A stretch of 32,000 nucleotides of DNA. Origin: Promethearchaeota archaeon. Lineage in GTDB: Archaea > Asgardarchaeota > Hermodarchaeia > Hermodarchaeales > Hermodarchaeaceae. Under the pieces are notes generated by a model, which saw only the letters and a program-made list of their open reading frames with translations, was not told the DNA's origin and made no database searches. The stretch is taken from the NCBI GenBank assembly GCA_048938295.1, contig JBHLMI010000007.1:30001-62000 (forward strand). Reading direction: 5' to 3'. Position numbers and translations under genes: made by a program. Below, one piece after another: positions 20,303 to 28,636 of this stretch (position 1 is its first letter; every line of letters begins with the position of its first letter).

Positions 20303-20407
20303 GCGGCTTTGATCTAGTGGTTATGATCCAGGCCTCCCACGCCTGAGACCCGGGTTCGAAAGCTCGACAAGCTTTGCTTGGTGCCGAAAGTCCCGGAAGC
20401 CGCACCA
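20303..20407 (+). tRNA. tRNA-Gly(CCC) with a 30-nt intron at 59/60
   Basis: GCGGCTT/AAGCCGC plus ACCA, anticodon arm CAGGC-CTCCCAC-GCCTG. Intron 20361-20390 forms a BHB with central helix TTCG/CGAA. Confidence 0.93.
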
Positions 20408-20456
20408 TTTCTCGTTTTCCCAACGCATAAAAGGTGTAGAGCCCATGATGAAGAAA

Positions 20457-20541
20457 GGAGAATGGCAGTGACGACTTGACCCTTTAGACCTATAGTATCC
20501 TATTAGGAATGATAAGGATCTTGAGTGCCGAGCCGTTCTCC
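20457..20541 (+). ncRNA. Candidate box C/D guide sRNA
   Basis: 10-bp terminal stem, C box GTGACGA (20468-74), 10-nt guide, D' TAGA, internal hairpin, C' ATGATAA (20509-15), 12-nt guide, D CCGA (20528-31). TATA-like CATAAAAG at 20426-33. The G-U pair in the terminal stem favours the + strand. Confidence 0.7.
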
Positions 20542-28378: not shown

Positions 28379-28453
28379 GGGGTGATAGATCAATGGTAGA
28401 TCGCGTGCCTCGCACGCACGAGGTTCCGGGTTCAAGTCCCGGTCACTCCACCA
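28379..28453 (+). tRNA. tRNA-Ala(CGC), intronless
   Basis: GGGGTGA/TCACTCC with the G3:U70 alanine identity pair, anticodon arm CGTGC-CTCGCAC-GCACG, encoded CCA. Starts 14 nt after the valS stop. Confidence 0.96.
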
Positions 28454-28530: not shown

Positions 28531-28636
28531 GGCTCAGTGGCCTAGAAGTTACCTCCTTGTGGGTATCTGGGCAGACTGGTGGGGCACCTGACTGATAATC
28601 AGGTGGTCGCGGGTTCAAATCCCGTCTGAGCCACCA
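28531..28636 (+). tRNA. tRNA-Ile(GAT) with a 29-nt D-loop intron (about 15/16)
   Basis: GGCTCAG/CTGAGCC plus ACCA, anticodon arm CCTGA-CTGATAA-TCAGG. Removing 28546-28574 restores the D arm. Confidence 0.9.

Follow-up and report, generated by a model that had tools for sequence, protein, structure and literature searches.

An unannotated box C/D guide RNA of a Hermodarchaeia archaeon predicted to target the wobble position of tRNA-Leu(CAA)

The locus and its box C/D element

The stretch analysed here (the window) comprises 32,000 nucleotides (nt) of contig JBHLMI010000007.1 (positions 30,001 to 62,000, forward strand) from the assembly GCA_048938295.1 of a Promethearchaeota archaeon (Asgardarchaeota; Hermodarchaeia). 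The source assembly (G000) amounts to 2.52 Mb in 66 contigs and is 91.6% complete. The element under study is a small RNA (sRNA) of about 85 nt at window positions 20457-20541 on the plus strand. It is intergenic: a tRNA-Gly(CCC) gene is located upstream on the same strand, the gene for an A-type ATPase B subunit lies further upstream, and the 3' end of a convergent cofE-like gene is found downstream.

Read at the sequence level, the box C/D layout of the element is complete. Its parts are listed below together with a TATA-like box in front of it. Constancy within the family refers to an alignment of 15 sequences, namely the source genome and 14 relatives.

20425-20434, plus strand: TATA-like box GCATAAAAGG, centred about 27 nt before the 5' end of the sRNA
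20457-20466, plus strand: terminal stem, 5' strand, GGAGAAUGGC, pairing with 20532-20541
20468-20474, plus strand: box C, variant GUGACGA (canonical RUGAUGA); UGA and the final GA constant in the 15 family copies
20475-20484, plus strand: D' guide CUUGACCCUU, 10 nt; GACCCU core constant in the family
20485-20488, plus strand: box D', variant UAGA; GA constant in the family
20489-20507, plus strand: internal hairpin, 19 nt, the closing stem of the C'/D' kink-turn (K-turn); CC/GG pairs constant
20509-20515, plus strand: box C', variant AUGAUAA, preceded by a 3-nt bulge; UGA constant in the relatives
20516-20527, plus strand: D guide GGAUCUUGAGUG, 12 nt; G20523 is the N+5 base (fifth upstream of box D)
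20528-20531, plus strand: box D, variant CCGA; CUGA in 14/14 relatives
20532-20541, plus strand: terminal stem, 3' strand, GCCGUUCUCC, pairing with the 5' strand and followed by a U-rich stretch

The terminal stem has 10 base pairs (bp), one U.G included, and a single unpaired A separates its 5' strand from box C. Tested on their bases, both box pairs were found compatible with a K-turn that has a tandem sheared G.A/A.G core and three bulged nucleotides (AGU and AAU, respectively). The internal C'/D' motif is present as UAGA ... AAU-GAUAA around the hairpin. The D spacer is 12 nt long, and the D' spacer 10 nt in the source family and 12 nt in other families. Folding of the sRNA strand was stronger than that of shuffled sequences (minimum free energy z = -2.86). 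No Rfam family reached its gathering threshold at the locus, the best scores below threshold being 16.7 bits for snoZ107_R87 (threshold 50) and 11.1 bits for sR17 (threshold 36).

The original prediction, made from the letters of the window, had described a full C-guide-D'-hairpin-C'-guide-D layout with two K-turn geometries and a 10-bp stem, and all of these features were located at the positions it had given. It had also spoken of variant boxes, GUGACGA/CCGA. Both pairs of boxes do depart from the consensus, and the terminal ones differ from RUGAUGA/CUGA, but CCGA turned out to be private to the source genome, the relatives having CUGA. As judged from these features and from the conservation described below, positions 20457-20541 encode a genuine, so far unannotated guide RNA of the box C/D type in this member of the Hermodarchaeia (Asgard archaea).

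Target of the D guide

The tRNA genes of the source genome are full of non-canonical introns, and as a result many of them are missed or mis-called by ARAGORN and the Rfam tRNA model. The tRNA-Leu(CAA) gene, which ARAGORN missed, was found with a script that matches acceptor strands. It is located on another contig than the sRNA (G000:C51:14373-14561; locus L063:174-362) and is composed of five exons (9+25+7+30+17 nt) and four removed segments (23, 30, 21 and 27 nt). The spliced product is an 88-nt class II tRNA, called Leu(caa) by ARAGORN, with the anticodon arm CAGGA-CUCAAGA-UCCUG.

Nucleotides 31-41 of the spliced tRNA, ACUCAAGAUCC, were found to be the exact complement (11/11) of guide bases 20516-20526, with G20523 facing C34. 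The unspliced form reads ACUCAAGAUCU and gives 10 Watson-Crick pairs and one G.U with the D guide. In this way the genome's own gene bore out both the complementarity to nt 31-41 of a tRNA-Leu(CAA) and the placement of the D+5 base on C34, which had been proposed before this gene was searched for. Outside a tRNA context, exact genomic matches of the 11-mer and 10-mer guide complements occurred at chance level only. A "Leu(caa)" call of ARAGORN at C46:18613 was rejected; the sequence is that of a class I tRNA of 75 nt, really tRNA-Val(CAC), whose gene has a canonical intron at 37/38.

The tRNA-Leu(CAA) gene was detected in 19/19 genomes of the family, with the same intron layout throughout and the same arm in the 16 that were aligned. 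The pattern GGACUYAAGAUCC is widespread in the phylum. Regarding the protein partners, fibrillarin (299 bits) and Nop5 (Nop, 227 bits) are encoded in the source genome by adjacent genes, and two genes of the L7Ae family were found as well (94 and 62 bits).

Since the N+5 rule is established, the target match is exact and the genes for the ribonucleoprotein (RNP) are present, 2'-O-methylation of C34 (Cm34) in tRNA-Leu(CAA) is predicted, and by this rule the sRNA should direct it. The original reading of the element as a C/D guide for C34 of tRNA-Leu(CAA) is supported at the level of sequence.

The 7-nt third exon of the tRNA-Leu(CAA) gene coincides with the anticodon loop, and mutual pairing is possible between the introns on either side of it (CACCUG/CAGGUG). 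As the D guide reaches across this micro-exon and its two junctions, one may speculate that it keeps the micro-exon in position during splicing.

Conservation of the element

By BLAST, the element was detected in 12 of 14 genomes of the same genus and in 2 of 4 genomes of the sister genus, the genomes that gave no match being 72-83% complete. The prediction had been made to depend on conservation of the locus, which was thus observed in 14 related Hermodarchaeia genomes.

In the family alignment the four GA dinucleotides are unchanged, as is the GACCCU core of the D' guide, and the U that follows this core is replaced by C in one genome. The D guide is invariant at 10 of its 12 positions; an eleventh is changed in one genome, the 3'-most varies between G and A, and GAUCUUGAGU is constant in every copy. 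Position 5 of box C is C or A, never U, and the first two bases of box D' are variable (UAGA, ACGA, AAGA, UGGA). The hairpin loop, the spacer ends and the flanks drift among the copies. Within the internal hairpin, the variable inner stem shows compensating changes, for example A-U to G-C in G011. Covariation of the terminal stem within the family was also considered and found to be nearly nil, the apparent double changes being a one-column shift of the two sister-genus rows.

Compact homologues, with the same D guide and an NNGA box D, were detected in at least ten further families of the phylum. Their box D reads UCGA, UUGA, AGGA or GUGA, only GA being constant. The terminal stems of these homologues have unrelated sequences, yet they are complementary in the same register over 4-14 bp in the 14/20 phylum copies that the parser resolved at 4 bp or more; this supplies the covariation that is missing from the alignment of the family. 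The true homologues in families f9 and f17 were found by pattern search, whereas the weak BLAST matches in f9 proved to be coding DNA.

A second, apparently degenerate sRNA copy was observed at locus L059 (G053; plus strand, about 1490-1560), some 200 nt away from the first and on the opposite strand. It carries the same D' guide, UAUCUGACCCCU, and another D-side spacer, GGAAACUUGAAU, and has no clear box D or terminal stem.

Complements of the D' guide

The target of the D' guide had been left open by the original prediction. Its complement was absent from the mature tRNAs assembled for the source genome, and the partial 16S and 23S rRNA of this genome contained no good complement either. A complement, AAGGGUCAG, was found in the removed 5' segment of pre-tRNA-Leu(UAA). 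This segment, about 45 nt long, opens with a second copy of GCGGGGG, the acceptor strand, and folds into a hairpin, the loop of which carries the complement. The D' guide pairs with it over nine positions (8 Watson-Crick pairs and one G.U). The exact 8-mer AAGGGUCA occurs 67 times in the source genome, and only one occurrence, that of Leu(UAA), is within a tRNA gene. In the family, the leader 8-mer is exact in 10/14 Leu(UAA) genes, with both genera represented, and the stem of the leader hairpin shows compensatory changes (GGGCG/CGCCC versus GGGAC/GUCCC). The anticodon arm of tRNA-Leu(UAA), ACUUAAGAUCC, fits the D guide at all positions but 34, where a G.U is formed, and no separate guide with a perfect match to this tRNA was found in the source genome.

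The leader hairpin of tRNA-Leu(CAA) (GACCCUU/AGGGGUC) was also considered as a D' target and rejected, as it does not track the guide in G011, in G008 or in the sister genus. Upstream of the real 5' end, each of the two leucine tRNA genes carries a duplicate of its opening heptamer (GCGGGGG), then a hairpin that covaries, then a spacer. These upstream copies, at G000:C51:14331-14372 and G000:C35 about 35380-35421 (minus strand), may be either leader or intron.

Each of the other families has a different D' guide sequence, the complement of which was found inside tRNA introns. The tRNA sets of these genomes were sampled, and the tRNA loci of G053, G024 and G034 were recovered independently by an anticodon-arm pattern. 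The motifs and their sites were as follows.

f18 and f7: motif GGGGUCAGA, in the D-loop intron of Leu(UAA) and the anticodon-side intron of tRNA-Met(CAU)
f8 (G025): motif UGGGGCUAGA, in the D-loop intron of Leu(UAA)
f16 (G048): motif GGGCCGGACA, in the D-loop intron of Leu(UAA)
f4 (G042, G021, G059): motif AAGGGCUAGA, in introns of Leu(UAA) and Met(CAU)
f6: motif GGGGUCAUA, in introns of Leu(UAA) and Trp(CCA)

From family to family, the intron motif changes along with the guide (GGGGUCAGA, GGGGCUAGA, AAGGGCUAGA, GGGGUCAUA and GGGCCGGACA). In G042 the 10-mer has three genomic copies, which are the sRNA and two tRNA introns, and the control gave 0. The longest run of pairing between D' guide and pre-tRNA-Leu(UAA) had a mean of 8.6 for the genome's own guide and 6.5 for the guides of other families. 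In a permutation test with one genome per family, the observed sum was reached by 9 of 40320 permutations.

The precursors that bear the motif are those whose anticodon arms fit the D guide imperfectly, through a G.U at 34 in Leu(UAA), two mismatches at 36-37 in Met(CAU), and one mismatch at 35 together with G.U pairs in Trp(CCA). The tRNA-Leu(CAA) of G053 and G033, with its perfect D-guide match, is without the motif. The base that the N+5 rule would select within the motif differs between families, which suggests that it is pairing, and not methylation of a particular intron base, that is selected for. Because guide and motif co-vary in precursors with an imperfect D-guide fit, the D' arm is read here as a putative docking arm.

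A census of the 9-mer GGGGTCAGA in G053 and G024 was carried out, and the sites beyond sRNA genes and tRNA introns look coding and occur at control frequency; they were not retained as candidates. In two f9 loci, L111 (G036) and L110 (G055), the D-loop intron of Leu(UAA) contains AAGGGUCAAGAC and GGGUCAAGAC, respectively. These are perfect matches to the D' guide of the source window and not to the f9 sRNAs L268 and L271, and a second f9 guide may exist.

Alternative explanations

The docking reading has to be weighed against the view that the D' arm is an orphan without a target, the shared leader or intron motif being due to common descent of mobile tRNA introns. One targetless guide has been reported for about 80% of tRNA-targeting sRNAs (PMC6009581), and the erosion of the motif in some family genomes, together with the f9 pairing that lacks the motif, would fit this view. 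It does not explain, however, why the D'-guide core stays constant over two genera while the adjoining bases drift, nor why matched guide-motif pairs outscore mismatched ones. In six families or more a changed guide is accompanied by a changed motif, despite the differing sites of the motif (D-loop intron, intron 3' of the anticodon, 5' leader), and the inconstant N+5 base fits selection on pairing better than descent of a single site. A purely orphan D' arm is hard to reconcile with this co-variation, and the explanation is considered unlikely.

A lower probability still is given to the D' arm being an ordinary methylation guide for helix 94 of 23S rRNA, just 5' of the sarcin-ricin loop, with an incidental match to the leader. 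The 23S rRNA of G002, G006 and G011 reads GAGGGUCAGG, which can pair with their D' guide CCUGACCCUU over all 10 bp, a terminal G.U included. This UC variant is nevertheless confined to these three genomes, whose sRNA copies are mutually close. In the source genome helix 94 reads GAGGGGAAGG, with two central mismatches beside the N+5 base, and in G003 and G012 it reads GAGGGUAAGG, with one mismatch in G003 and two in G012. The helix-94 site therefore varies whereas the D'-guide core is invariant. In addition, complementarity between helix 94 and the family's own D' guide is lacking in five other families.

It is very improbable that the D' arm is directed to the 5' end of tRNA-Trp, with G4 at N+5. 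The tRNA-Trp gene (C55) starts A(-1)-GGGGUCAUG and does pair with GACCCUU from position -1 to position 7, one of the pairs being G.U; this places G4 at N+5. The pairing depends, however, on a leader base and on the G.U, an acceptor stem is a poor single-stranded target, and the tRNA-Trp of the source genome has a box C/D-like intron of its own. In f6 the tRNA-Trp starts with GGGGCGG or GGGGACG, neither of which matches the f6 D' guide, and there the motif is located in the Trp intron.

The sRNA of the source genome might also be a decaying copy in which a U-to-C exchange in box D has disabled the K-turn, CCGA being seen in none of the other 14 family copies. This is very improbable as well. 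Box D has kept its GA, and the entire D guide, the stems and the promoter box are undamaged; box D of homologues in other families reads UCGA, UUGA, AGGA or GUGA; and the changed base occupies the 3b.3n position, already C.U or A.U rather than U.U in the relatives.

Promoter and genomic setting

The GCATAAAAGG box was found at the same distance from the sRNA in 15/15 family loci, after the T-run that trails the tRNA-Gly gene. This position is the one expected for an archaeal TATA box, and the box is probably the promoter of the sRNA itself.

The tRNA-Gly(CCC) gene extends over window positions 20303-20407 (plus strand). It encodes CCA and contains a 30-nt T-loop intron at 59/60 (20361-20390). 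It was missed by ARAGORN and scored 23.5 bits, below the threshold of the Rfam tRNA model. A tRNA-Gly gene lies about 45 nt upstream of the sRNA in 15/15 family loci, and in some relatives it has an anticodon-side intron too. Elsewhere in the window a tRNA-Ala(CGC) gene was found at 28379-28453 (plus strand), followed by an intron-bearing tRNA-His(GUG) gene at 28531-28636 (plus strand), for which Rfam gave only 35.6 bits.

Two partial rRNA genes were observed in the source genome. The one at G000:C48:36-1167 takes 1132 nt to cover 514 positions of the small subunit (SSU) rRNA, and the one at G000:C20:44859-46418 takes 1560 nt to cover 830 positions of the large subunit (LSU) rRNA. This excess span suggests rRNA introns; the complete SSU gene of G006 spans 3.6 kb.

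Discussion

The findings can be accommodated in the following scheme. The sRNA would be transcribed, probably from its own promoter just downstream of the tRNA-Gly(CCC) gene, and would act in trans. L7Ae would sit on both K-turns, together with Nop5-fibrillarin. The D guide would pair with nt 31-41 of tRNA-Leu(CAA), so that fibrillarin could make Cm34. The D' arm, in turn, may dock on AAGGGUCAG in the leader hairpin loop of pre-tRNA-Leu(UAA), and docking would bring the RNP to an imperfect D-guide substrate before processing. The outcome could be that formation of 2'-O-methyl-U34 (Um34) is allowed or that the precursor is chaperoned. In other families, the D' arm would pair with the co-varying motif in introns of pre-tRNA-Leu(UAA), Met(CAU) or Trp(CCA).

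A guide for C34 of tRNA-Leu(CAA) equipped with a D' docking arm is regarded as the best overall explanation, and as a likely one. The wider proposal, by which one guide RNA would serve several tRNAs, the D arm being perfect for Leu(CAA) and the D' arm docking on discarded parts of the Leu(UAA), Met(CAU) or Trp(CCA) precursors, is put forward tentatively.

Several points weigh against this best explanation. The D' spacer is 10 nt long instead of the usual 12. The box D variant CCGA occurs in the source genome alone; it might reflect an error of assembly or make the K-turn weaker. As the D-guide segment served to find the homologues outside the family, the invariance of the D guide among them is in part built in. 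Erosion of the leader motif was seen in 4/14 family genomes (G008, G010, G011 and G012), and in f9, where one genome was tested (G036), only 6 nt pair with the Leu(UAA) intron. Some of the tRNA loci of other families were found by the motif search itself, although those of G044, G025 and G048 were not. Moreover, a Watson-Crick pair at N+5 has been reported to be essential for methylation (PMC6009581); for this reason U34 of Leu(UAA), which forms a G.U, may stay unmethylated even when the precursor is docked, and Um34 is uncertain.

The locus points to an RNA-guided route to 2'-O-methylation of nucleotide 34 (Nm34) in the leucine tRNAs of Asgard archaea, as opposed to TrmL in bacteria and Trm7 in eukaryotes. 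Asgard archaea are the closest known prokaryotic relatives of eukaryotes. If docking takes place, wobble methylation of Leu(UAA), Met(CAU) and Trp(CCA) would be intron- or leader-dependent in these organisms, which would parallel the intron-dependent tRNA modifications known in yeast. Docking would also account for "orphan" guides, given that earlier scans took mature RNAs only. The abundant archaeal tRNA introns would gain a selectable function, and with it a testable reason for keeping so many of them; discarded pieces of tRNA precursors would have a job.

Comparison with known systems

The literature search returned no paper on Asgard C/D sRNAs. The basic function proposed here is of a known kind in a new lineage, and the literature searched contained no description of a separate arm co-varying with motifs in leaders or introns.

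The closest likeness is to Pyrococcus. According to the account of the 2001 work given in PMC7994747, C/D sRNAs directed at the wobble base were predicted there for four tRNAs, Leu(CAA), Leu(UAA), Met and Trp, and the prediction of a C34 guide for Leu(CAA) in P. furiosus is quoted in PMC7668247. As far as these descriptions go, and the likeness is drawn from description only, the two systems share the type of RNP, C34 of tRNA-Leu(CAA) as target, the N+5 logic and the set of four tRNAs. In contrast, Pyrococcus is described as having four separate sRNAs, one per tRNA, while the Asgard sRNA is a single one that is perfect for Leu(CAA) only and has an arm complementary to removed parts of other precursors. 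The relaxed boxes and the internal hairpin are further differences on the Asgard side.

In Haloferax volcanii, sR-tMet and the guide in the intron of pre-tRNA-Trp are likewise box C/D guides for Cm34, and they pair partly with an intron (PMC2584109; PMC4033218). In these guides one antisense element runs across the exon-intron junction, and methylation must therefore precede splicing. The Asgard D guide does not require a junction in the manner of sR-tMet, as it pairs 11/11 with spliced and over 10 pairs plus a G.U with unspliced Leu(CAA); it fits both forms alike, and a separate D' arm pairs with a distant leader or intron motif.

The tRNA-Trp(CCA) gene of the source genome (G000:C55:6655-6798, minus strand; locus L065) has a 67-nt intron in which elements resembling boxes C and D (GCUGA ... 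GAUGACGA) were seen, along with a segment, UUCUGGAGC, whose complement is the anticodon loop of the same tRNA. The intron resembles the intron-encoded guide of euryarchaeal pre-tRNA-Trp, and its C' box has the variant UGACGA, as does box C of the sRNA.

Nm34 of leucine tRNAs is also made by proteins, namely the bacterial TrmL (Cm34/cmnm5Um34) and the eukaryotic Trm7-Trm734 (PMC4033218, PMC6847430). They act on the same set of tRNAs with the same chemical result, but as stand-alone proteins, and no relation by descent is claimed. Human SNORD97/SCARNA97, which guides modification of C34 in tRNA-Met (PMC6601510), is RNA-guided like the Asgard system.

Finally, targets of the tRNA-targeting C/D sRNAs of Pyrobaculum, such as sR26 for C34 of tRNA-Trp, were sought only among mature tRNAs and rRNAs (Lui et al. 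2018, PMC6009581). Like the Asgard sRNA, these families are wobble guides with a single target and a second guide that has no match in mature RNA. The second guides of Pyrobaculum were left as orphans, whereas that of the Asgard sRNA has a conserved and co-varying complement in the removed segments of pre-tRNAs.
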